Shown here in pieces: positions 9,241 to 61,822 of a stretch of DNA of 64,000 nucleotides; positions within the stretch are counted from its first letter, which is position 1, and each line of letters opens with the position of its first letter. The notes below the pieces were generated by a model that made no database searches, had not been told where the DNA came from, and saw nothing but the letters and a program-made list of their open reading frames with translations. The position numbers and the translations under genes are program-made. The stretch covers positions 1,137 to 65,136 of the forward strand of contig JBBIQK010000005.1 of the NCBI GenBank assembly GCA_037442365.1. Reading direction: 5' to 3'. This stretch comes from Armatimonadota bacterium (GTDB lineage: Bacteria > Armatimonadota > Fimbriimonadia > Fimbriimonadales > GBS-DC).

Positions 9241-9327
9241 GACAAAAGGGGCTTAAGAGGGTAGGTTTTTTTGAGGTGCGCGCTGCTTGCGGGCGCACCC
9301 AGAATATGGAGAAGCGCGTGTTCACAC

Positions 9328-9421
9328 GACGGCTGAAGCCGTTCCTATCAAACGAAGCCGACCTTCGTCGGCTATAGCCAGCGTAGGCTGGCTTTGTGTT
9401 GTAGGAACGGCTTCAGCCGTC
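9328..9421. mobile_element. MITE-like twin-hairpin element, copy A (94 nt)
   Basis: Terminal inverted repeats gacggctgaagccgttcctat / gtaggaacggcttcagccgtc. Internal stem-loops agccgac-cttc-gtcggct and agccagc-gtag-gctggct. A related copy lies at 41328-41474. Confidence 0.6.
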
Positions 9422-9695
9422 TTCTCTTCAAGCAGGACGCGAAAAAACCTACCCCTTTAAGGACAAAGTGGGTGAGGGCAACATCCAGCGCCGATTTACG
9501 AACTATGACCCGCAGATTGGTATTACTTGCTCTGTTGCAAGGATACTTGTTCCGCCTTCGGCACAGCCCACTTCGCCCCACAGGGCGCGGCGACCCCCTA
9601 CTCATGCCTGTACGGACGCGGTTCCCGCGTCCTGTTGTTCGGCTCTCCCATTCTTTGCAACAGAGCAGGTATTACTCTTCTCCCAGAATCTACGA

Positions 9696-9882
9696 GTTTC
9701 AATTAGCACCCACCCTTGGGGGTGAATGCTACTCACGGGTCCGTACTTATGGATCCGTACGACACCGAGGTTTCAATTAGCACCCACCCTTGGGGGTGAA
9801 TGCTACGGGGCCTGGCTCTACGAGTATTACACGTTGAGCCTCCCGGTTTCAATTAGCACCCACCCTTGGGGGTGAATGCTAC
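9696..9882 (-). CRISPR. orphan CRISPR mini-array, 3 repeats and 2 spacers
   Basis: Identical 37-nt repeat GTTTCAATTAGCACCCACCCTTGGGGGTGAATGCTAC at 9696, 9770 and 9846. Unique spacers of 37 and 39 nt. Internal palindrome CACCC..GGGTG. The minus-strand repeat ends in ATTGAAAC, the usual crRNA 5'-handle, hence the minus call. No cas genes in the window. Confidence 0.8.
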
Positions 9883-9939: not shown

Positions 9940-10360
9940 AATTGACCCCCCGATTTGAACTCAACACTCTGCGCGAACCTCGACGCGATTTGAACTCAAG
10001 TGCGAATTTGGGGGAGGTTCGCGCAAAAAGTATCGTTGGGCGGCTGTTGTTCTGGGGGTGTGTTTTTGGGGTGTTTTTGAGTTCAGATTTGGGGGTGTGA
10101 TGTGGTGTTATTTGGGGGGTGAATTGGGTTCAGGTTCAACTATTTAGCGTGGCTAAGTATTGCGCGAAGGTCTGTAGACATTTGATTCAAGTTCAGAGGG
10201 GTGGGAGGTTCGCGCAAAGTTTAGCGTAGCTAAGGAGTTGAGGCGGATTGAGTTCAGGGTTTTGGGGTGTGAAGTTGAAGTGGCGCTTGAGGTTTGGGTT
10301 TGTGGGGTGTGAGTCGGTGGGGGGTTCGCGCAAAGTTTAGCGTGGCTAAGGATTTGGTGG
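9940..10360. repeat. G/T-skewed noncoding region with degenerate tandem modules (possible CRISPR leader or ncRNA)
   Basis: ggttcgcgcaaagtttagcgtRgctaagga at about 10207, 10323 and partially 10017 and 10143. tgagttcag/ttgaactcaa in both orientations. ggggtgtg runs. 12-bp inverted repeat tgcgcgaacctc (9970) / gaggttcgcgca (10014). No credible ORF. Confidence 0.55.
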
Positions 10361-24393: not shown

Positions 24394-27122
24394 CAGTAGC
24401 GTCGTTTGCGCTTCCCGACATGTTGCGCGTGGTGCTTTTTGCGGGGGGCGTCTTCGCTGTCTGCCGCGCTGGTCGCATTCGCCGCGCTTGTTGGGGGAGA
24501 CGCGGCGCTCGCTTTCGGCGCGACCGCCGTCGCCTTCGCCGCCTCTACCTGACGCTGATGGAGCTTCTCACGCGCGCCCTGCCAGCTCACCATAATCTGG
24601 CTCGCGATGAAAATCGACGAGTAAGTGCCCGCAATCACGCCAATCAGCATGGTGACATAGAAGAAGCGCAGATCCTGCGTCACCGCGCCCCAGATGACCA
24701 GCGCGACCAGCACAATCAGCAGGGTCAGGCTGGTGTTGATGGAGCGCGCCAGAGTCTGGTTCAGACTGCGGTTCACAATCGTCGCGAAAGTCTCCCCGCG
24801 CGCCCGATGGCGCAGGTTCTCACGCACGCGGTCATACACAATGATGGTGTCGTTAATTGAGAAGCCAACCAGCGTCAGCAGCGCGGTGATAAAGAGCGCG
24901 TTAATCTCCCAGCCGAGCAGGTAGCCCAGTATCGCCGCGCCGCCGACCATAATCAGCACATCGTGCGCGAGCGCAATCGTCGCGGCGATGCCGAACTTGA
25001 ACCCGCTCCAGCCGCCCTCGATGGAGAAGCGGAGCGCAATATAGAGCAGGATTGCCAGCAGCGCAACCGTCACAGCGGTGATGGCGCGTTGCACGGTCTC
25101 GGCGCGCACGCGCGGGCTGATGCTGGCAAAGCTCACCACCTGCAGCTCGCCCAGCGGTTTGAGCGCGTCCACAATCTTCTGCTGGCTGTCTGCATCGGCG
25201 TCGGCAACATGCACAATCAGCTGGCGGTTGCCGTCGCCGAACAACGCGCCGACCTTTTCGAAGCCCGCCTGTCGCAGCAAGGTCAGCACCTGCGCCAGGT
25301 TCGCCTCAATCGGTTCAGGACGCACAACAGGCGGCTGCTGATTCGCCTGCTCGCCCTGTGCAGGCGCAGGCGGTTGCTGGGCAGTCTGCTCGCCCTGTGC
25401 AGGCGCAGGCGGTTGCTGGTTTGCTGGCTCGTTCTGCGCAGTTGCCGCAGGCGGTTGCTGGTTTGCTGGCTCGTTCTGCGCAGTTGCCGCAGGCGGCTGT
25501 TGATTCGGCTGCTCGTTCTGCGTCGCCGCAGGCGGTTGCGCCTCGGACTTCGGCTGAGTCGCGCCTGCCACCGGTCGCTGCAGCACCAGCTCGCTGCCGC
25601 CTTCGAAGTCGATGCCCGGCTTCAGCCCGCCCAGCCCCAGCCAGAAGACCAGTCCGATCAGGATGGCGATGCTGCTAATCGCGTAATACAGCCCGCGCTT
25701 ATTCACGAAGTCGAAGCGGTCTTTCGCCGCGCCCAGCTGCTCGCCGACCTCTTGACCCAGCTGACGCCGCAAGCCAAACAGCCGCTCGCTCGGATGCACG
25801 CCTACCCCGACCAGCGTGTAAAGCATCGTGCGCGTGCAGAAAATCGCCGTGAAAAAGCTAATCGCCACACCGAAGCCAAGCGTTGTTGCAAACCCCTGCA
25901 CGGGTCCCGTGCCGAACGAGTAGAGAATCGCACAGATGATTATCGTACTCAGGTTCGAATCGAAGATTGCGGGGAACGCGCGTTTGAAAGCGGCGTCCAG
26001 CCCCGCCAGCAGCGTCTTACCCAGACGCAGCTCCTCCTTCAAACGCTCGAAAATCAGGATGTTCGCGTCGATCGCCATGCCGATGGACAGGATGATTCCC
26101 GCAATCGCCGGCAGCGAGAAGGTCACGCCCAGCGATTTGAACATCGCCGTCGCGAACAGCACATACAGCCCCAGCGCAATCACGGAAATCACGCCGGGCA
26201 GCAGGTAATACAGCGCCATAAACACGGCGATTGCCGCAAACCCGATGACGCCTGCTTGAATGATGCGCTCCCACGCCTGCGCGCCCAGAATCGCCTCCAC
26301 ACGGTTGATCGACTCCAGCGAGAGGCTCACGGGCAGTGCGCCTGCGTTCAGCAGGTCGCGCAAACGCGCCGCCTCTTTCAGAGTGAAGTTGCCCTGAATC
26401 ACCGGCTCGCGCAGATTGGCGGACTGAATCACGGGCGCGGAGATAATCTTGTTGTCCAGCAGGATGGCGATATGCTCCTTAAGATAGAGCGACGACGCGC
26501 GCGCGAACTTGTCCTGCCCCTCACGGTTGAAAATCAGCAGCACTTCGGGCGAGAACGATTGGCTGATCACCTCCGCGCGTTCCAGCTCGTCGCCCGTGAC
26601 AATCAGCGGCGACGATTCGATGATTTTCTGATACTCGGGCGTGCCCGGCTCGATGACCTTCCCATCAGGGCTGGTGAGATCGCGGAATTTGACAATCTCG
26701 TCCCCCCCCTGTTCTTCGAGGACGATTTCGTAGCGCCCGGTGGGCTGCTTCTCGGTGCGCACATCGCGCAGGTAGCGGAACTCGAGCCGCGCGGTGGTCT
26801 GCAGCAGCTCGCGCGCCTCCTGCTCATCGGTAAAGCCCGGCAGCTCAATAACTATCTCTGTATCGCCTTTTTGATAGATGGTGGGTTCAATCACGCCCAG
26901 CGAGTCGATGCGTCGGGTGAGGATGTCGACCACCAGTCGCATGCGTTCGGGCGTCCAGAGCTGGCGCTCTTCAGGTGAAAGTTTCTCAATCTCGGCGCGC
27001 AGGGTCATGCGCAACCCGCCCTGCACATCCAGCCCGCGTCGTGCGGGCAGCGTGGCGAACAGGTAGCCCGCAAGCCCCGCGAGCAACAGAACGATACCCA
27101 GGTAAATAAAGTGTTTATTCAA
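24393..27122 (-). CDS. secDF: protein translocase subunit SecDF fusion
   Basis: TTG start with GGAGGAG SD. SecD periplasmic and TM regions (LGLDVQGG-like GLDVQGGLRMTL; IGMAIDANILIFERLKEE), then a P/Q/A-rich linker, then SecF (SINDTIIVYDRVREN). Confidence 0.9.
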   Translation of the reverse strand: MNKHFIYLGIVLLLAGLAGYLFATLPARRGLDVQGGLRMTLRAEIEKLSPEERQLWTPERMRLVVDILTRRIDSLGVIEPTIYQKGDTEIVIELPGFTDEQEARELLQTTARLEFRYLRDVRTEKQPTGRYEIVLEEQGGDEIVKFRDLTSPDGKVIEPGTPEYQKIIESSPLIVTGDELERAEVISQSFSPEVLLIFNREGQDKFARASSLYLKEHIAILLDNKIISAPVIQSANLREPVIQGNFTLKEAARLRDLLNAGALPVSLSLESINRVEAILGAQAWERIIQAGVIGFAAIAVFMALYYLLPGVISVIALGLYVLFATAMFKSLGVTFSLPAIAGIILSIGMAIDANILIFERLKEELRLGKTLLAGLDAAFKRAFPAIFDSNLSTIIICAILYSFGTGPVQGFATTLGFGVAISFFTAIFCTRTMLYTLVGVGVHPSERLFGLRRQLGQEVGEQLGAAKDRFDFVNKRGLYYAISSIAILIGLVFWLGLGGLKPGIDFEGGSELVLQRPVAGATQPKSEAQPPAATQNEQPNQQPPAATAQNEPANQQPPAATAQNEPANQQPPAPAQGEQTAQQPPAPAQGEQANQQPPVVRPEPIEANLAQVLTLLRQAGFEKVGALFGDGNRQLIVHVADADADSQQKIVDALKPLGELQVVSFASISPRVRAETVQRAITAVTVALLAILLYIALRFSIEGGWSGFKFGIAATIALAHDVLIMVGGAAILGYLLGWEINALFITALLTLVGFSINDTIIVYDRVRENLRHRARGETFATIVNRSLNQTLARSINTSLTLLIVLVALVIWGAVTQDLRFFYVTMLIGVIAGTYSSIFIASQIMVSWQGAREKLHQRQVEAAKATAVAPKASAASPPTSAANATSAADSEDAPRKKHHAQHVGKRKRRY
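25335..25545 (-). repeat. in-frame tandem repeats encoding the P/Q/A-rich SecD-SecF linker
   Basis: Near-perfect 42-nt duplication at 25419-25460 and 25461-25502 (QQPPAATAQNEPAN x2), plus two copies of about 39 nt (QQPPAPAQGEQ.) just before it. Confidence 0.8.
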
Positions 27123-41190: not shown

Positions 41191-41327
41191 GGCTTCTACC
41201 CCCGCGCGGTCGATTCGCCGCACACGTCCCTATTCCTTGCAAGGTACGCTGGTGAGCGTTGCGAAGTGTGCGAATCACCTTATGTAAGCGCGATTAGAAG
41301 CCGTTCAGGAATGCGCGCTCAAATCCA

Positions 41328-41474
41328 GACGGATGAATCCGTTCCTAACAAACGAAGCCAGCCTGCGCTGGCTCCCCGTAGATTGGGCATCCTGCCCAAA
41401 ATCAAGCGCAGGATGCGCTTGCTACTTCAGCCGACGAAGGTCGGCTTTGTGTGATAGGAACGGCTTCAGCCGTC
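41328..41474. mobile_element. MITE-like twin-hairpin element, copy B (147 nt)
   Basis: gacggatgaatccgttcctaacaaacgaagccagcctgcgctggct ... agccgacgaaggtcggctttgtgtgataggaacggcttcagccgtc. The arms are homologous to copy A (9328-9421). The centre carries the extra hairpin gcatcctgc-N12-gcaggatgc. Confidence 0.6.
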
Positions 41475-41524
41475 GGGCACAAACGCCCCCTATTCCGTTG
41501 TTTGCCTACTTTTCTGGAATGCTT

Positions 41525-42319
41525 CTAACTTGCCATCTGCACGCTCTCCTCATATCCAGTCACTTGAGTGTGCGCTAACCGTTCCAGAATGTTCTCGATT
41601 TGCTGTACTTTCTCGTGAATCTCCCGTGCCCTGCCAGCAGAACTCATTTCCCGCACAGGGTGCGCAATATCATTCCTGAAATGAACAAGAGTATTTAAGC
41701 AATTTTCTGATTGCTTGCGAGAACTAAACCCCAGACACCAACGCAAATGTTTATCTTTGCAAACAATGTTTACAATGTCGCTCAGCGATAGAACCTCGAT
41801 GTAGCCTGTATCCACACCGTCTGTCTGCCGCTCCATGCGCAATTTACGAACCTCAGCCTGTCTTTTCGGGGAAAGAAACTCCAGTATCCTCTCCTCGGCA
41901 GGCTGGCAGTATTCGCGTATCAGTTGACTGAGGCAATACTCCAGTTCACCCACCAGCGTAAAGAGGTAGGTACGGCAGGCAACCTTGTTCAGGTCGGCGG
42001 GTGAGACGATGCCGTCCACGCGCGCGCCGTTGACCACAAGGTAGGCTGGCTTGGCGTGTGGCTCGCTGAAAATGCGGATGACTTCGCGGATGGGGGTGGA
42101 GTGTGCAACAATCCACTCTTCAGTGATGGGTTCAGGCAGATACTCACCCTCGCGAAGCACCCAGAGACCCACGAAACAATCGCCCTCGGTTCTTGGAATA
42201 ACATCATAGCAGGGTTTACCTCGCAGCACGGGCGTGACAGACGCCACTTCCAACCGCTTGCGCGGCGTCATAATGTATTCCACCGTAAACGCATCCCGAA
42301 GCGTCTCATACAGTTTCAT
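41525..42319 (-). CDS. CBS-like domain protein with C-terminal HEPN-type (Rx4H) helical domain
   Basis: Visibly lower GC than the flanks and its own GGAGGG SD. N-terminal EYIMTPRKRL...VDGIVSPADLNK is CBS-like. C-terminal LVHFRNDIAHP contains R-N-D-I-A-H, the Rx4H HEPN RNase motif. Domain calls are by eye only. Confidence 0.5.
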   Translation of the reverse strand: MKLYETLRDAFTVEYIMTPRKRLEVASVTPVLRGKPCYDVIPRTEGDCFVGLWVLREGEYLPEPITEEWIVAHSTPIREVIRIFSEPHAKPAYLVVNGARVDGIVSPADLNKVACRTYLFTLVGELEYCLSQLIREYCQPAEERILEFLSPKRQAEVRKLRMERQTDGVDTGYIEVLSLSDIVNIVCKDKHLRWCLGFSSRKQSENCLNTLVHFRNDIAHPVREMSSAGRAREIHEKVQQIENILERLAHTQVTGYEESVQMAS

Positions 42320-42418
42320 AGCGCCCTCCAGACGACATCGGGAATTTGCCGCATCTGCTTATGCGAATGGCTGGTAGACTTTCAGGAATCACCGCCCGCA
42401 ATCACGATTGGGAGACAT

Positions 42419-43165
42419 TCACCCGTCGCTAATTTGCGATTCCGCCTGCAGCCACACGACTCCTGCTGGGTCGAGGCTGACCGCGATATGCCCCAGCCGC
42501 CATAACTCCAGCATTGCCAGGAACGAGACGAGTAAGTCCAGCACATCGAGCGCGTCCTGGGCAAGCGCGTCGAAGGGCAACGGCTCGCGCGCGACGCTCA
42601 GCCGCTCGCGAATCTCGATCATGCGGGCGTGCAGCGAGAAGTAGCGGCGGTGCGGGATGGCGTCGGGCACGGGCATGCGCTGTTCCAGCATGCGTTTGAA
42701 GGCGAGCCAGAGCTGGTCGGGCAGCTCCGCGCCGAATTCGGGCGGCAGCTCGTAGTCGCGCGGGTCGATCGCGCCGCCGCGAAAAAAGAGCCACATGCGC
42801 TCGCCCTCGCGCTGGCGCAGATGCTCCGTGAGTTGCAGGTATGCGTCGGGCAGTCCTGAAGGCGGGAGCCAGTCCGCCTCCTCCTCAGGTTCAGGTTCTG
42901 GGTCGGGCGCGAGCAGGCGCTGCGCCTTGCGTTCGGCGAGGTACGCCAGCGTCGCCAGCGCGTCCGCCGCCTCGTCCATATCGCCCACCTCGCGCCAGTA
43001 GTCGTAGCACGCCTGCGCCACGGGCGCAAGGTCAACCTCGTTGAGATCGAGCTTGTGCTTGCGAATCAGGTGCGCGAGCCAGCCCAGCGAGCCAAACCCC
43101 AGCGGCAACTGCAGCGGCACGCGTGGGGGCGACCATTCAGGCGAACCGATGTGGAACCGACGCAT
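42419..43165 (-). CDS. scpA: segregation and condensation protein A (kleisin)
   Basis: FGSLGWLAHLIRKHKLDLNEVDLAPVAQACYDYW...LDLLVSFLAMLELWRLGHI. Start placed at ATG 43165, which sits 9 nt below a ggTATAAT box. Confidence 0.8.
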   Translation of the reverse strand: MRRFHIGSPEWSPPRVPLQLPLGFGSLGWLAHLIRKHKLDLNEVDLAPVAQACYDYWREVGDMDEAADALATLAYLAERKAQRLLAPDPEPEPEEEADWLPPSGLPDAYLQLTEHLRQREGERMWLFFRGGAIDPRDYELPPEFGAELPDQLWLAFKRMLEQRMPVPDAIPHRRYFSLHARMIEIRERLSVAREPLPFDALAQDALDVLDLLVSFLAMLELWRLGHIAVSLDPAGVVWLQAESQISDG

Positions 43166-43174
43166 TCCCCCGCG

Positions 43175-43180
43175 ATTATA
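43175..43180 (-). promoter_or_regulatory. -10 box (ggTATAAT) for scpA, leaderless spacing
   Basis: The minus strand reads cagaggTATAATcgcgggggaATG. Confidence 0.45.
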
Positions 43181-43192
43181 CCTCTGGGCAGG

Positions 43193-43198
43193 TACAAT
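43193..43198 (+). promoter_or_regulatory. -10 box (ggTACAAT) for the DUF4446 gene
   Basis: gcaggTACAATtccccgtacgatATG. Back-to-back with the scpA box. Confidence 0.45.
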
Positions 43199-43210
43199 TC
43201 CCCGTACGAT

Positions 43211-43711
43211 ATGAACGGACACACACTGATGGAGTGGGCGCAGCAGCCGCAGGCGGTCGTCGGGCTAACAATCGCGGTCGCCGTGCTGCTGCTCTGGAAT
43301 CTGGCGCAGGCGTGGCGCTGGGGCGCGTTTATGCGCCGCTGGAAGCAACTGATGCAGCACTCGGAAGGCGGCTCGCTGGAACACACCCTCTACGAGACCT
43401 TGCGCCGCGTCTCTGTGATGGAAGAGACGCTCAAAACGCATGGGAACCATCTACAGCAGTTGCAGAGTCAAACCAATACCTGCTTGCAACGGGTCGGGCT
43501 GGTGCGCTACGACGCCTTCCCCGACATGGGCGGGCAGCAGAGCTTCGCGCTGGCAGTGCTGAACGAGCATGGCGACGGCGTCGTGCTGAGCGGCATCCAC
43601 AGCCGCCACGAGATGCGCGTGTACGCCAAGCCCATTCAGAATCGGGCGTCCAGTATCGGGCTGTCCGATGAGGAGCAACATGCGCTGCGCGAGGCGAGTC
43701 AATTCAAGTAG
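43211..43711 (+). CDS. DUF4446 family protein
   Basis: One N-terminal TM helix, then VGLVRYDAFPDMGGQQSFALAVLNEHGDGVVLSGIHSRHEMRVYAKP, typical of DUF4446. Confidence 0.75.
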   Translation: MNGHTLMEWAQQPQAVVGLTIAVAVLLLWNLAQAWRWGAFMRRWKQLMQHSEGGSLEHTLYETLRRVSVMEETLKTHGNHLQQLQSQTNTCLQRVGLVRYDAFPDMGGQQSFALAVLNEHGDGVVLSGIHSRHEMRVYAKPIQNRASSIGLSDEEQHALREASQFK

Positions 43712-46929: not shown

Positions 46930-47060
46930 GACGCAGGGGGCGGCTTGCCCGCCCCCTTGCGACGACAGCCGCTTGCATTCGTGGAGAAAATCTTCCGCTT
47001 CGACTCTCGTGAACGACAAGTGTAAGTCAATATGTTTTTATTATATTTTATTTTATAATA

Positions 47061-47473
47061 CTATACATTTATCACACCTTGAGGAAACTGATAAAGCGAA
47101 TGCCGTCTCCAAACCGACGCGAGTCTCTGATCGCCCGTGAGAAATATCTCACACTTTCCGACAGAGGCATAAGCGAGGTGAAGGGCATCAGGCGTGCGCA
47201 GGTTTGTAATTGCCCTTATTTCCGCCGCGCGTCGAAATACTTTAGAATGGCTGGAAACAAGAGCCAGTGTTTGGAAGTATGACTCGTATGCCTGCACAAG
47301 AGTCTGTTTGTTATTCCGTAGTGGTTCTACTAAGCATTCCATCAGCGCAAGGCTGCTGGAACACAGCGTATAGTCTGGAAGCTGGACAGTACCGCCAACA
47401 CCTGTGGTCTCTTAATCGTATTTTCTACCAGGTAGATAATAACACAGCTATCCAGATAAATGCGTTTCTCCAT
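47061..47473 (-). pseudogene. frameshifted PIN-domain toxin (VapC-like)
   Basis: The N-terminal part MEKRIYLDSCVIIYLVE (47342-47473) stops at a TGA that overlaps, by one nucleotide, an ATG opening the C-terminal part ...TPDALHLAYASVGKCEIFLTGDQRL (47061-47342), which lies in a different reading frame. Together they form one PIN domain. Confidence 0.6.
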
Positions 47474-54454: not shown

Positions 54455-54572
54455 TCTGGGCATCGACCTATTTTCCCACTCCGTTACCAGAGCAGTATCT
54501 TCGGCGCTGGAGGGCTTAACTGCCGTGTTCGGGATGGGAACGGGTGTTTCCCCTCCGCTATGGACACCCAGA
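54455..54572 (-). rRNA. rrf: 5S ribosomal RNA
   Basis: The minus strand reads TCTGGGTGTCCATAGCGGAGGGGAAACACCCGTTCCCATCCCGAACACGGCAGTTAAGCCCTCCAGCGCC...GATGCCCAGA. Ends are accurate to about 3 nt. Confidence 0.9.
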
Positions 54573-54793
54573 TTGAAAGGGTAATCGCACCTTTTGAGAG
54601 GGTCGGTTCCCTCTCAGGAGGTGTTTGACAACTGGAGCTGGAGTCGTCGGAAGTGCGTCAATAGGCAAGCCCTCGGTCAATTAGTACGGCTCAGCTCAAC
54701 GCATTACTGCGCTTACACATGCCGCCTATCAACCCGGTCATCTACCGGGGACCTTACTCCGTTAAACGGATGGGAGACCTTATCTTGGGGTGG

Positions 54794-54824
<31 letters not shown>

Positions 54825-54970
54825 CCGTCCCGACATGGCTACCCAGCGTCTGCCCCTGGCGGGACAACTGGTACACCAGAGGTCAGTCCAGCCCGGTCCT
54901 CTCGTACTAGGGCCAGCTCCCCTCAAGTCTCCTGCGCCTGCGGTGGATAGGGACCGAACTGTCTCACGCA

Positions 54971-55801
54971 CATACCTCCCTTGTTTCCAAGGGTGTAGAC
55001 TATACCTCCATCCTCCCGAAGGACCAGGAGGAGCCGGCGTGTGATGAGCGCCATAGATTTGCCCTCTTCAGGGCAGGACGCCCATCTCAGGCGTAAAGCC
55101 TTCAGTCGTTACGGGGAACGGCAGCTTGCACCGCATCACTGGCACAACATAGGGTTCAATCAGTTGCACAAGCCGTTGCGCCTGTTTCACTGGGAGATAG
55201 AGCCAGTGCGCGTGTCGCTTCGGACTTGCGTGGATATGCGCCTCCAAACCAAAGTTTGCTTCGAGCGCACCACACAGGCGTTCCAAACCGATTCTGGAAA
55301 AGCACTGCGTCTCTATCTTGACCGAACCCTGTCGTTTGTCAAGTGTGCCATCGTCCATGTACCAGACTGCAAGCGCCAGAGGCGTGTTGAGCAATTCAAC
55401 GATGTTCTCTGGAACCTCTTTTCTCCCATGAGGGTAGAAAAGCGCTCGCAGCTCTGCAAGGAGCGGATGGCATCGGGTGACGAAACGCCAGTATGGGTAG
55501 CCTCTGTTGGTTTGACGATTCATCGGGGATGGTTTCAAATCCGCCAGCATTGCGTGCTTCCACGCCACATAGTCGCGGAAGCGTTCGGCGTGCAAGACCT
55601 GAAGGCGCACGCCGCGCCCGTGCGGTTCGAGATAGCCATCTCCGAGAATCGTGCCAATCAGAAGGTCCTTCATCTTCAGCTCCCGTTCTTCCCTCGGTAT
55701 TGCCCTCTGCAGCGTTCGGTGGACTGCAGGAGGGGTCTACCGATATGAGCCGGTAGGCACCACAGGATTACTCCTGTGGGACGCCACGCCCGTTTGGGCT
55801 A
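54971..55801 (-). mobile_element. group I-type intron 1 (831 nt) at the E. coli U2593-equivalent site, HEG-containing
   Basis: Exon junction GGGTTCAGAACGT|...G|CGTGAGACAGTTCGG. U precedes the 5' splice site and the intron ends in G. GCGU near the intron 5' end can pair with exon ACGU (U.G wobble). GNRA-capped hairpin CCCTTGGAAACAAGGG. Confidence 0.8.
55068..55673 (-). CDS. double-motif LAGLIDADG homing endonuclease (in intron 1)
   Basis: LIGTILGDGYLE and LAVWYMDDGTLD motifs about 100 aa apart. 201 aa. The last ~17 codons overlap the conserved intron core. Confidence 0.85.
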   Translation of the reverse strand: MKDLLIGTILGDGYLEPHGRGVRLQVLHAERFRDYVAWKHAMLADLKPSPMNRQTNRGYPYWRFVTRCHPLLAELRALFYPHGRKEVPENIVELLNTPLALAVWYMDDGTLDKRQGSVKIETQCFSRIGLERLCGALEANFGLEAHIHASPKRHAHWLYLPVKQAQRLVQLIEPYVVPVMRCKLPFPVTTEGFTPEMGVLP

Positions 55802-55837
<36 letters not shown>

Positions 55838-55883
55838 TGAACCCCCCAACCCTTGGGACCTTATTCAGCCCCAGGATGCGACG

Positions 55884-56248
55884 CATGGTACTCCACTGTT
55901 TCCAGTGGCACAGACTATCGCATCACCTTGACCATCGCCTGTCAAGGGTTCGGCGTATGATGAGCGCCGTAGATTTGCCCCATTCAGGGCAAGACGCCCA
56001 TCTCAGGCATGAAGCCTTCAGTCGTTACGGGGTCAGAGGAGCTTGTATTCCATTACTGGAGGTACATAGGGACGGGAATGCTGGCGATGCCCGTCGCTTT
56101 GTACCGTGCTGCAGAAAGTGTGCAGCATTTTCGGCTCCTCGACTTCCCACGGGATTACCCTCGCCAATCGGGGGAGGATTGCGTTAGGGCTTCCCCGTTA
56201 TCAGCCGAATTTTACCTGAAGAGTCGCCTCTTCAGGGGCCCTTCGTTG
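55884..56248 (-). mobile_element. group I-type intron 2 (365 nt, ORF-less) at about E. coli U2511
   Basis: Junction GATGTCGGCT|CAACGAAGG...CCATG|CGTCGCATCCTGGGG. U at -1 and terminal G. GGCC near the 5' end pairs with exon GGCU. Shares a 75-nt block (about 69/75 identical) and the P9-like GAAA hairpin with intron 1. Confidence 0.75.
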
Positions 56249-56497
56249 AGCCGACATCGAGGTGCCAAACCCCGCCGTCGCTGTGGACGCTCGGGCAGGA
56301 TCAGCCTGTTATCCCTAGGGTAGCTTTTATCCGTTGAACCCTGGCGTGCCCACGCACAGCCAGAGGGTCACTAGGCCCTGCTTTCGCATCTGCTCGACCC
56401 GTTGGTCTCACAGTCAAGCCCGCTTATGCCCTTGCACTCGACGCGCGATTTCCGACCGCGCTGAGCGGACCTTTGGACGCCTCCGTTACCGTTTAGG

Positions 56498-57443
<946 letters not shown>

Positions 57444-57716
57444 AAGACTGTCTCCACGCCGGATCACGGCGCAGGTTAGCATTCCAGTAGGTCAAGGGTG
57501 GTGTTCCATTGGCGCCGAAGCTCCCACCTACGCTCTACATGACATACCGAAATGCAATCTCAAGCTGTAGTAAAGCTCCATAGGGTCTTTCCGTCCTACC
57601 GCAGGTAACCCGCATCTTCACGGGTGCTACAGTTTCACCGAGAGTCCCGCTGAGACAGTGGCCCAGTCGTTACGCTTTTCGTGCGGGTCGCAATTTACGC
57701 GACAAGGAATTTCGCT

Positions 57717-58035
57717 TATCGCCTTACCCGAGAAGTTGTCTCGAGCGAGCCACACCCTTCCTTGTCATAGGGAATAGCTCCTGCATGTCGCCATGCAGAT
57801 GGGACCATCTCTTCACCTCGTCGTTGAGGTACCCAGCGTATGGTCTCTGAGGATTCTAATCACCGAAAGTGATTAGTCTTTCCTGCTGGTTGTCCGCACC
57901 AGACGGATTGTTACTCACAGGAATTGTATTTTCTCACGGGTGAGAATTTCCTGCAAGTACCGCTGGATACTCGGAGTTTCCAGCATATAGCTGGGTGCGC
58001 ACCTCATGGTTACCCATGAGGGGGGCAGCGAAGGT
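57717..58035 (-). mobile_element. intervening sequence 4 (319 nt, ORF-less) at the E. coli U1931-equivalent site, related to intron 3
   Basis: Junction CGGTCCTATGGT|ACCTTCGCTGCC...GGCGATA|AGCGAAATTCCTTGTCG. Shares GCTATATGCTGGRAASTCCG, GCGGACAAYCAGCAGGRAAG and CCTCAACGAC with intron 3. The 3' end is not a G under this alignment (see findings). Confidence 0.65.
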
Positions 58036-58239
58036 ACCATAGGACCGTTAGAGTTACGGCCGGCATTCACCCGGGCTTCAGTTCAGGGCTGCACCTTGCG
58101 GCTGACCCCTCCCCTTAACCTACGGGCATTGGCCAAGCGTCGCCCCCTATACATCGGGTTTCCCCTTCGCAGAGAGCTGTGTTTTTGGTAAACAGTCGCC
58201 GGGCCCGCTTTGCTGCGACCTCTTTCGAGGCACCCCTTC

Positions 58240-58273
<34 letters not shown>

Positions 58274-58823
58274 TAGCGGGACTTCTCTCGCGCGCCTGAG
58301 GCTCCTCGCCTCGCCTACCTGTGTCGGTTTGCGGTACGGTCAGGTGGTTTCAACGCTACACGGGTTTTCTCGGCTCCAGTCACAGTCGCTTCGTTCACCC
58401 GAAGGATCCCTTCGTCGCCCCAGAGTTGCCGCTGGGGCGAGCGCAGCCTTCCAACTCTGCGCCCGACCGATTCTGAAGCGTCGCCGTTTTGCTCCGCCAC
58501 CTGGGGTGGGAATGTTGACCCACTGCCCTTCGCCTACGGCTTTTCGCCCTCGACTTAGGACCGCCTAACCTTCAGCGGACGAACCTGCCTGAAGAACCCT
58601 TAGGCTTTCGGCGGACGGGATTCTCACCCGTCTTCTCGCTACTCGTGCCGGCATTCTCACTTCTGCACGCTCCAGCGGTGCTTTCGCTCCGCCTTCACTG
58701 CGAGCAGAACGCTCCCCTACCGCTCCCATTGCTGGGAACCCGCCGCTTCGGTAACAGGCTTGAGCCCCCTTACATTATCGGCGCAGGGTCACATTCGACC
58801 AGTCAGCTGTTACGCACTGTTTA

Positions 58824-58854
<31 letters not shown>

Positions 58855-59743
58855 TTGTTTACGCGACCCTACATCCTTTAACACTTAGCCTGTGTTTAGG
58901 GACCTTAGCGGGCGGTCTGGGCTATTGCCCTTTTGACAACGGCGCTCATCCGTCGCTGTCTCACTGCCACGGTTCCTGCTATGCCATTCGGAGTTTGGTT
59001 GGGTTCGGTAACCTGGTGGGGCCCCTAGCCCATCCAGTGGCTCTACCTGCACAGCATAATCCGTGACGCTGCACCTCAATGCATTTCGGGGAGAACCAGC
59101 TATCTCCGCGCTCGATTGGCATTTCACCACACTAACCCCAGTTCCTCCGAGACCTTTTCAACGGTCACCAGTTCGGCCCTCCACCGTGTGTTACCACGGC
59201 TTCAGCCTGACCAGGGTTAGATCGCGCGGTTTCGGGTCTGCACCCAGCGACTGGAACGCCCTGTGTGGACTCGCTTTCGCTACGGCTCCGCGTCTGAGAC
59301 GCTTAACCTTGCCGCTGAGCACAACTCGCCGGCTCATTCTGCAAAAGGCACACCGTCAGACTGTCCCCCAGAGGGGTATAGTCCTCCGATTGTTTGTAAG
59401 CGCACGGTTTCAGGTTCTGTTTCACTCCCCTCGCCGGGGTGCTTTTCACCTTTCCCTCACGGTACTGGTTGCGCTATCGGTAGCAAGGAGTATTTAGCCT
59501 TACCCGGTGGTCCGGGCAGATTCGCACAGGGTTCCTCTTATCCCGTGCTACTCGGGATTCCGACGAGGCGTTCCACTTTTCGCATACGGGGCTGTCACCC
59601 GCTGTGGCGTGCCTTTCCAGACACTTCTGCTAAGCGGTTCGCTCTCTGATGTCGGTCCCACGACCCCAATCGGGCACGCCCGATTGGTTTAGGCTCTTCC
59701 CCGTTCGCTCGCCGCTACTGAGGGAATCTCGTTCGATTTCTTT

Positions 59744-59784
<41 letters not shown>

Positions 59785-60082
59785 CACACCGCCTATGGGT
59801 TCAGCGGTGGGTGACCACCCATTCGGTGGCCGGGTTCTCCCATTCGGGGATCTGCGGATCAACGCCTGTTTGCGGCTCCTCGCAGCTTATCGCAGCTTAC
59901 CACGCCCTTCATCGGCTCCTTGCTCCTAGGCATCCGCCGTGCGCCCTTAGTAGCTTGCCTACTTTGGCGCGCTTCTCGATGACTCCAGTCCAGTTGTCAA
60001 AGGGTAAATCGTTGGGTCCGTTGCCCGTTGTTGGCGCCTACAGCCCAACCGTCAACGCCCCGTGAGGCGCTGAGGGTTAGGT

Positions 60083-60157
60083 TGGTGGAGGCGACCGGAT
60101 TTGAACCGGTGACCCCCTGCGTGCAAAGCAGGTGCTCTCCCGCTGAGCTACGCCCCC
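60083..60157 (-). tRNA. tRNA-Ala (UGC), CCA encoded
   Basis: The minus strand reads GGGGGCGTAGCTCAGCGGGAGAGCACCTGCTTTGCACGCAGGGGGTCACCGGTTCAAATCCGGTCGCCTCCACCA. G3:U70 is present and the anticodon loop is CTTTGCAC. Confidence 0.92.
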
Positions 60158-60159
60158 AC

Positions 60160-60236
<77 letters not shown>

Positions 60237-60293
60237 GTATGTGGCTCCCTCAAAACCGAGCAGGCAGTGCTTTGCAAGCCGAGAGTATCCGTT

Positions 60294-61822
<1,529 letters not shown>

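Follow-up and report, generated by a model that had tools for sequence, protein, structure and literature searches.

The closest described counterpart of the gene reported here is DS-11 (E. coli WP_000257686.1, working name IMPD), a validated anti-phage system that consists of one protein with a CBS part and a HEPN part and that comes from DefensePredictor (bioRxiv 2025; Science 2026; PMC13092281). Defence by DS-11 is abolished by Y157A in the CBS part and by R330A and H335A in the HEPN part, and its authors' HHpred search returned HEPN_SAV2148 at 95.7% (Table S5 text; PMC13092281). CBS-HEPN fusions had been listed by Anantharaman et al. in 2013, who proposed that nucleotides sensed by the CBS domains control RNA cleavage; CBS fusions in the Swt1/Abi2-like HEPN clade include alr3009 and Pelobacter gi 118580987 (PMC3710099). 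We describe a gene of this architecture in a 64,000-nucleotide stretch of contig JBBIQK010000005.1 from an Armatimonadota bacterium of the order Fimbriimonadales, hereafter the window. The gene probably encodes a single-polypeptide, ligand-gated CBS-HEPN ribonuclease (RNase), most likely a stand-alone anti-phage defence protein of abortive-infection-like character; we put the probability of this reading at about 0.65. With the architecture already predicted in 2013, and a homologous system of one protein validated in 2025-26, this would be a defence gene of an already-known kind, and it opens no new system category. It carries the combination of a CBS sensor and a HEPN RNase in one protein beyond E. 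coli, to an Armatimonadota subfamily of short proteins (264 aa).

Relation to DS-11 and Other Described Systems

A profile built from 65 family sequences was aligned with the DS-11 sequence, taken from Table S8 of PMC13092281. The hhalign comparison gives a probability of 97.1% (E 5.7e-11) over 200 columns that begin with the CBS pair and take in the Rx4H motif. Aligned separately, the CBS halves reach 89% (E 2e-6) and the HEPN halves 92-94% (E 9e-8 to 6e-7). The three DS-11 residues Y157, R330 and H335 align with Y38, R215 and H220 of the window protein. In both proteins, the CBS pair is followed directly by the HEPN domain in a single polypeptide with no partner gene, and both have an invariant Glu on their first HEPN helix. 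The two differ in length (365 aa for DS-11 versus 264 aa here), are about 18% identical over the aligned columns, and come from Pseudomonadota and Armatimonadota (Fimbriimonadales), respectively.

The CBS-HEPN proteins of the 2013 survey have the same two-domain architecture, an intact Rx4-6H motif and predicted control by a nucleotide ligand; some of them have an HD phosphohydrolase domain in addition, which the window protein lacks. Their Swt1/Abi2 clade is associated with restriction-modification (R-M) operons, an association matched by three distant homologous loci (L010, L011 and L013; homologous loci are designated by L and a number), and the sub-threshold matches obtained here include Pfam HEPN_Swt1 and Abi_2. 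Assignment to this clade rather than to another HEPN clade is not established; the RiboL-PSP and MAE_28990 models score equally. The CARF-HEPN proteins Csm6 and Csx1 of type III CRISPR systems are also alike in that an N-terminal nucleotide sensor allosterically governs a C-terminal dimeric HEPN RNase, with a logic of non-specific RNA cleavage that is predicted here, and weak sequence matches to Csm6 HEPN regions were found. However, the sensor here is a CBS pair and not a Rossmann-like CARF domain, and the gene is not linked to any cyclic-oligoadenylate synthase (Cas10). HepT-MntA, the type VII toxin-antitoxin system in which HEPN is paired with an MNT nucleotidyltransferase, shares the HEPN Rx4H RNase toxin, and HepT is the top Foldseek match of the C-terminal domain. 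The difference is that no MNT partner lies near the gene; control would be exerted by the fused sensor and not by AMPylation from an antitoxin.

Gene Composition and Domain Architecture

The gene and its parts are located as follows.

41525..42319, minus strand: gene for the CBS-pair and HEPN protein, 264 aa plus stop, ATG start, low GC
42324..42329, minus strand: Shine-Dalgarno sequence GGAGGG, 4 nt 5' of the ATG
41984..42292, minus strand: CBS pair (Bateman module), residues about 10-112, from profile, Foldseek and Pfam
41528..41983, minus strand: all-alpha domain assigned to HEPN, residues 113-264, from secondary structure, profiles and Foldseek
41660..41677, minus strand: Rx4H motif R215-N-D-I-A-H220, predicted RNase catalytic dyad, read from the sequence

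The open reading frame (ORF) contains the peptide motifs IMTPRK, VDGIVSPADLNK and HFRNDIAHP. Its GC content is 0.523, and its GC content at third codon positions (GC3) is 0.589, as compared to 0.79-0.84 in seven neighbouring genes. The C-terminal half, with a GC3 of 0.53, is lower than the N-terminal half, with 0.67. Around the gene, GC dips locally to 0.48-0.57 versus 0.60-0.69 in the surroundings. No MNT or antitoxin ORF is present in the 99-nt upstream gap, the 300-nt downstream gap or the neighbouring genes, and no adjacent MNT gene was found in loci L001-L008 either.

The N-terminal half is a full CBS pair. With the 65-sequence family profile, residues 13-115 match CBS pairs in the PDB at E values from 3e-8 to 1e-6, 7msu_A (E 3.3e-8) being one example. 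An AlphaFold2 model computed from the family alignment has a predicted local distance difference test score (pLDDT) of 94.5 and a predicted template-modelling score (pTM) of 0.89, and Foldseek matches it to the CBS pairs of CorC, CNNM and AcuB with a probability of 1.0 and target TM-scores of 0.47-0.59. The Pfam CBS model matches 51 of the 65 family members (best E 6.5e-12); on the window protein alone it scores 19.8 bits, which is below the 24-bit cut-off. In the second CBS domain (CBS2), the motif G103-I-V-S106-P-A-D109 fits the G-h-h-S/T-x-x-D signature of the ribose-binding type, which in CBS domains contacts the ribose of the ligand. Its conservation is high, with G103 in 65/65 sequences, T or S at position 106 in 59/65 and D109 in 62/65. 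Y38, also in the CBS pair, is invariant in the close subfamily; in the wider family the position is Y or F in 48 of 65 members and I, V or L in the rest.

The C-terminal half is all-helical in the AlphaFold2 model (residues 113-263, pLDDT mostly >90). Its first helix (113-138) runs straight out of CBS2 and bears R116 and the invariant E127. Across relatives that are 21-82% identical to the window protein, E127 and H220 are conserved in 65/65 sequences, R215 (codon 41675-41677) in 64/65, N216 in 50/65; the H220 codon lies at 41660-41662. The best Pfam HEPN scores, for HEPN_RiboL-PSP (16.7 bits, cut-off 28.4) and MAE_28990 (16.5 bits, cut-off 26.8), are below threshold, as are matches of some family members to Pfam Swt1, Apea and Abi_2, matches to Csm6 (NCBIfam, E 0.002; PDB, E 0.015-0.034), and PADLOC matches among family members to Csx1/Csm6, CARF_HEPN, AbiD and RTasHEPN. 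Artefacts aside, these sub-threshold C-terminal matches concentrate on HEPN families and lie within the part that bears the Rx4H motif. The top Foldseek match of the domain in the PDB is the HepT HEPN toxin 6m6u_H (probability 0.90, E 0.18, root-mean-square deviation 9.5), which was obtained with a first model whose N-terminal half was poorly folded. A Foldseek search of the BFVD viral structures gave nothing below E 0.25. PDB matches to designer pentatricopeptide (PPR) proteins at E 2e-14 were rejected as summed-repeat artefacts, each stretch having an i-Evalue of at least 70.

History of the Gene in Fimbriimonadales

The closest homologues, which are 49-82% identical, are found on Fimbriimonadales-type metagenomic contigs and in the complete genome AP024673.1. 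L001, L004 and L005 have the gene in the same place, after the ScpA-like gene scpA, and share an adjacent block of DUF4446, extracytoplasmic function (ECF) sigma, anti-sigma and ceramidase genes; the gene has other locations in L006 and L007. About 40 nt preceding the ATG are identical between the window and the orthologous locus L001. Identity and synonymous divergence (dS) of the gene and its flanks compare as follows.

Window versus L001: flank proteins 96-98% and CBS-HEPN 82% identical; flank dS 0.11-0.17, CBS-HEPN dS 0.44
Window versus L004: flank proteins 85-95% and CBS-HEPN 60% identical; flank dS 0.33-0.51, CBS-HEPN dS 1.90

The synonymous divergence of the gene is 3-4 times that of its flanks. 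Its ratio of nonsynonymous to synonymous divergence (dN/dS) versus the orthologues is 0.17-0.23, which indicates purifying selection, and GC3 is 0.59-0.64 in every orthologue as compared to 0.78-0.85 in the flanks. Within the gene, dS is 0.17 in the CBS pair, a flank-like value, and 0.91 over residues 139-264. From this pattern of GC3, dS and dN/dS it follows that the gene is functional, compositionally foreign and of a history unlike that of its surroundings, with the HEPN half standing out most. The simplest reading of the divergence of the HEPN half is allelic exchange by recombination, to which relaxed codon constraint could contribute. The split history of sensor and effector is a small, concrete clue to the diversification of such genes.

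In L004-L008 (five contigs, four distinct loci), the CBS-HEPN gene is followed by a gene for a signal-peptide protein with trypsin and NosD/beta-helix parts, with a GC3 of 0.61-0.64. Its positions in four of these loci are listed here.

L004, 8875-10656: trypsin-like and NosD/beta-helix gene
L005, 8870-10375: trypsin-like and NosD/beta-helix gene
L006, 7109-8896: trypsin-like and NosD/beta-helix gene
L007, 8884-10446: trypsin-like and NosD/beta-helix gene

This gene appears to have been co-transferred with the CBS-HEPN gene. The window and L001 are without it and have instead a hairpin element, described below, and a native secreted 622-aa protein. The 622-aa gene was considered as a possible partner but discarded: its GC3 of 0.84 is native, its product has a signal peptide, and it shows no relationship to the trypsin/beta-helix gene that the relatives carry.

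A bolder interpretation would make the locus a modular, recombining immune locus, in which the sensor half stays bound to the chromosome (flank-like dS) and the HEPN half is swapped from a pool of divergent alleles (fivefold dS, lower GC), the whole having arrived as a two-gene, low-GC cassette with the secreted trypsin/beta-helix protease as partner. We consider this unlikely and offer it as speculation; if it were true, effector-half swapping and a protease partner would be CBS-HEPN traits undescribed for DS-11.

A separate patch of divergence is found at window positions 42355-42433, where the last codons of scpA and the start of the spacer differ strongly from L001 between sequences that are otherwise 95-97% identical. 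This patch may be a second recombination boundary.

The Wider Family and Its Neighbourhoods

In an exhaustive profile search, 2284 representative clusters passed E <= 1e-3, of which 1000 also passed E <= 1e-10; the best 150 of the 2284 are mostly proteins of 250-280 aa with full-length matches. A family of about 2300 representative clusters is large, and it has members on haloarchaeal megaplasmids as well. These megaplasmid copies are the six distant matches, the only ones, of a tblastn search of plasmids. A scan with two exact peptide patterns of the close subfamily found it in 1 of 185,579 species-representative genomes, a member of the Fimbriimonadales.

All eight distant members examined, which are on long contigs, adjoin defence or mobile genes (R-M, toxin-antitoxin or transposase genes), HicB toxin-antitoxin genes also being among their neighbours.

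L010: type I R-M
L011: SNF2 and MmeI-type methylase, GmrSD, large DEAD/MZB helicase
L012: insertion sequence (IS) elements and toxin-antitoxin genes
L013: N6 methylase and AAA_15/21
L014-L016: PIN, HicA, MazE and ImmA-like genes
L017: Schlafen-like, AAA and S8 peptidase genes

Two of these loci, L010 (5174-7229) and L013 (5177-7236), have a common layout beside R-M genes, in which genes for a DUF3293 protein, the CBS-HEPN protein and a 133/134-aa protein follow one another with 4-nt overlaps. This arrangement could represent a form of the system that has several genes.

Proposed Mechanism and Alternative Explanations

Most of what a preliminary description had proposed from the letters of the window stands. 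The low-GC ORF after scpA with its own strong Shine-Dalgarno sequence, the CBS-like N-terminus, horizontal acquisition and the want of a visible partner are all borne out by the data above. The HEPN identity of the C-terminus is upheld by the sub-threshold matches, the conservation of R215 and H220 and the alignment with the HEPN half of DS-11, with curated cut-offs unreached. No profile or fold search placed this half in any non-HEPN fold, and the homologues in relatives are low in GC and are not core genes. The proposal of a stand-alone, ligand-gated defence RNase gains support, by analogy, from the DS-11 experiments and the aligned essential residues.

Architecture, conserved residues, homology to DS-11, composition, evolution and neighbourhoods are consistent with the following mechanism. 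The CBS pair would bind an adenine-containing nucleotide, CBS2 having retained the ribose-binding signature and Y38 taking the place of the adenine-contacting Tyr of DS-11. Because CBS2 joins the first HEPN helix (R116, E127) without a linker, binding or loss of the ligand would be relayed rigidly to the HEPN domain. Two protomers are predicted to pair, uniting their R215-x4-H220 motifs in a metal-independent RNase site as in other HEPN enzymes. An infection-altered ligand pool would then trigger cutting of cellular RNA, phage RNA or both, and with the HEPN site under ligand control no antitoxin would be needed. In evolutionary terms, a foreign cassette would have settled downstream of scpA in one Fimbriimonadales (Armatimonadota) lineage, and its HEPN half would have been exchanged, or have diverged separately from the sensor half. 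The compact, thermophile-associated version of the protein could be a convenient object for a search for the CBS ligand and for structural work.

Several observations weigh against a defence function of this kind or against its link to DS-11. The window protein is below the curated cut-off of every HEPN model, PADLOC returns no match for it, and tblastn of 50,697 phage records finds no homologue. Pairwise BLASTP with DS-11 gives no significant match (E 0.014 over 46 residues), so the link to DS-11 rests on profile comparison. DS-11 also has about 120 extra N-terminal residues (the alignment starts at its residue 121) that are not present here, the window protein beginning about 10 residues before the CBS pair. 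Together, the extra residues and the BLASTP result lead us to place the window protein in a distant, shorter subfamily and not to call it an orthologue; without the N-terminal extension its group may be a separate short subfamily, and the homology stands. The neighbours are housekeeping genes (rpmH-rnpA-yidD-yidC-jag, scpA and an ECF sigma factor) and form no dense defence island, and the synteny across several related genomes also fits a domesticated physiological role.

Such a role would be that of a CBS-gated HEPN RNase that senses the adenylate or energy state of its own cell (ATP/AMP, diadenosine tetraphosphate (Ap4A), S-adenosylmethionine (SAM) or similar ligands) and tunes RNA stability or translation under stress. 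It was proposed for CBS-HEPN proteins by Anantharaman et al. in 2013 (PMC3710099), and it agrees with the retention of the post-scpA locus in at least four related contigs, with purifying selection (dN/dS about 0.2) and with the housekeeping character of the immediate neighbours. We nevertheless regard it as rather unlikely: the homologous DS-11 gives phage protection that needs both its CBS and its HEPN residues (PMC13092281), 8/8 distant members examined lie among R-M, toxin-antitoxin or IS genes, the GC3 is foreign and synonymous divergence is 3-4 times that of the flanks, and the close subfamily was found in a single genome of the 185,579 scanned with its two exact peptide patterns. The gene could also be a selfish toxin or addiction cassette, possibly with a neighbouring partner lost here, which would make the window copy an orphaned component. 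Candidates for such a partner in the relatives are the secreted trypsin/beta-helix protein, small overlapping ORFs and the DUF3293 proteins: the trypsin/beta-helix gene directly follows the CBS-HEPN gene in L004-L008 and has the same atypical GC3, small ORFs overlap the start of the gene in L007 and L014, and L010 and L013 share the overlapping three-gene layout with DUF3293. However, DS-11 functions as a single gene (PMC13092281); the trypsin/beta-helix protein begins with a signal peptide and therefore probably acts outside the cytoplasm; and the partners vary by lineage and are absent from the window and L001, where the gene is intact and under purifying selection. An addiction cassette is thus, in our estimate, quite improbable.

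A more radical objection denies that the C-terminal domain is a HEPN nuclease at all and makes the protein a non-catalytic CBS regulator with a helical dimerisation or output domain and a coincidental RNxxxH. Every direct HEPN profile match is below its curated threshold, the Foldseek match to HepT has an E of 0.18 and a high root-mean-square deviation, and Pfam HMMER calls no HEPN even in DS-11 itself. Against this stand the near-invariance of R215 (64/65) and H220 (65/65) and the frequency of N216 (50/65) at identities down to 21% and up to 82%, the concentration of non-artefact sub-threshold C-terminal matches on HEPN families, the requirement for the aligned R and H in defence by DS-11 (PMC13092281), and the HEPN_SAV2148 assignment of DS-11 by its authors (95.7%; PMC13092281). 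We judge this objection very improbable, and a ligand-gated CBS-HEPN defence RNase remains the favoured explanation.

The ScpA-like Gene and the Hairpin Element

On its two sides, the CBS-HEPN gene is bordered by an ScpA-like gene and a repeat element, of which a second copy was found elsewhere in the window.

42419..43222, minus strand: ScpA-like kleisin gene, Pfam SMC_ScpA 28.7 bits versus a cut-off of 24.6
41327..41496, no strand assigned: palindromic multi-hairpin repeat element, of the repetitive extragenic palindrome/bacterial interspersed mosaic element (REP/BIME) or miniature inverted-repeat transposable element (MITE) kind, from its fold, repeat family D6 and blastn copies
41354-41375, minus strand: terminator-like hairpin within the element
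9327..9422, no strand assigned: compact second copy of the element, at a distance of 32 kb, just upstream of a small CRISPR-like array

The ScpA-like ORF is separated from the CBS-HEPN gene by a 99-nt gap and has the same (minus) orientation. It is a native, high-GC3 gene (0.806), 97% identical to its L001 orthologue and separate from the putative defence gene; NCBIfam matches to it are weak. Because the orthologues are 246-248 aa long, its true start is likely near 43165. A functional link between ScpA and the CBS-HEPN protein was considered and rejected, as the pairing is restricted to one lineage and the composition and divergence of the CBS-HEPN gene are sharply unlike those of scpA. A tblastn search of the 64-kb window with a ScpB consensus, a weak test, found no scpB-like sequence below E 1, and in the relatives L001, L004 and L005 none of the genes called up to about 8 kb from scpA is listed with a ScpB Pfam domain. 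The order of scpA and then CBS-HEPN is conserved in relatives, and therefore nothing shows that scpB was displaced. That scpA and scpB lie apart seems to be a trait of the lineage, with no sign of scpB replacement, and the idea that the CBS-HEPN gene occupies the slot of scpB is not supported.

The hairpin element is built of two inverted half-units, in each of which a TTTGT..TAGGAAC linker joins a hairpin to a GGCTTCAGCC hairpin; further hairpins lie between the half-units. On the minus strand, positions 41300-41530 fold at -99.3 kcal/mol (z = -4.6), and 0/200 shuffles fold as well. The element probably supplies the terminator of the CBS-HEPN gene. The copy at 9327-9422 is 85-96% identical over the half-units. 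The orthologous copy in L001 is 97% identical, a conservation like that of the flanks, and is split by a 340-nt insertion. With two copies in the window and one orthologous copy, evident inverted half-units and no target-site duplication identified, the element fits the REP/BIME type and a MITE equally. The preliminary description had the gene flanked by a MITE-like repeat of 147 nt at 41328-41474. The hairpin repeat is real and lies directly after the gene, but it reaches to about 41496 and is found on one side only, so that "flanked" was too strong. As a vehicle that mobilised the gene, the element was rejected: besides being one-sided, it is absent from L004-L008, which do have the gene, and its divergence is flank-like.

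The insertion in L001 (8975-9315, corresponding to window position 41345/41346) is made up of other GC-rich hairpins, one of which resembles window positions 9590-9640. This suggests that several palindromic repeat families are nested in these genomes.

Other Features of the Window

A small CRISPR-like array at 9696-9882 has three repeats of about 37-40 nt (GTTTCAATTAGCACCCACCCTTGGGGGTGAATGCTAC) at a spacing of 74-76 nt; beyond it, at 10009-10356, are more repeats, of 41 nt and irregular. Another patch of low GC (0.46-0.52) lies at 46930-47400, just after the ceramidase gene, and holds a 93-aa PIN-domain fragment (47061-47342, minus strand). At this spot, relatives have EcoO109I and a methylase (L001), BanI and a methylase (L005) or a methylase-HNH gene (L004); it looks like a variable hotspot of defence or toxin-antitoxin genes.

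The rRNA operon (54455-61822, minus strand) has its 23S gene in several pieces. It contains two Rfam group I introns, at 57781-58042 and 57161-57424, and long insertions at about 55000-56500 with an 82-nt direct repeat (55035/55951, 91%). The insertions carry ORFs that could be homing endonucleases. Finally, tandem repeats of 39-42 nt (CAGGCGGTTGCTG...) at 25328-25539 lie inside a long ORF and are probably a low-complexity coding repeat rich in Pro, Ala and Gln.

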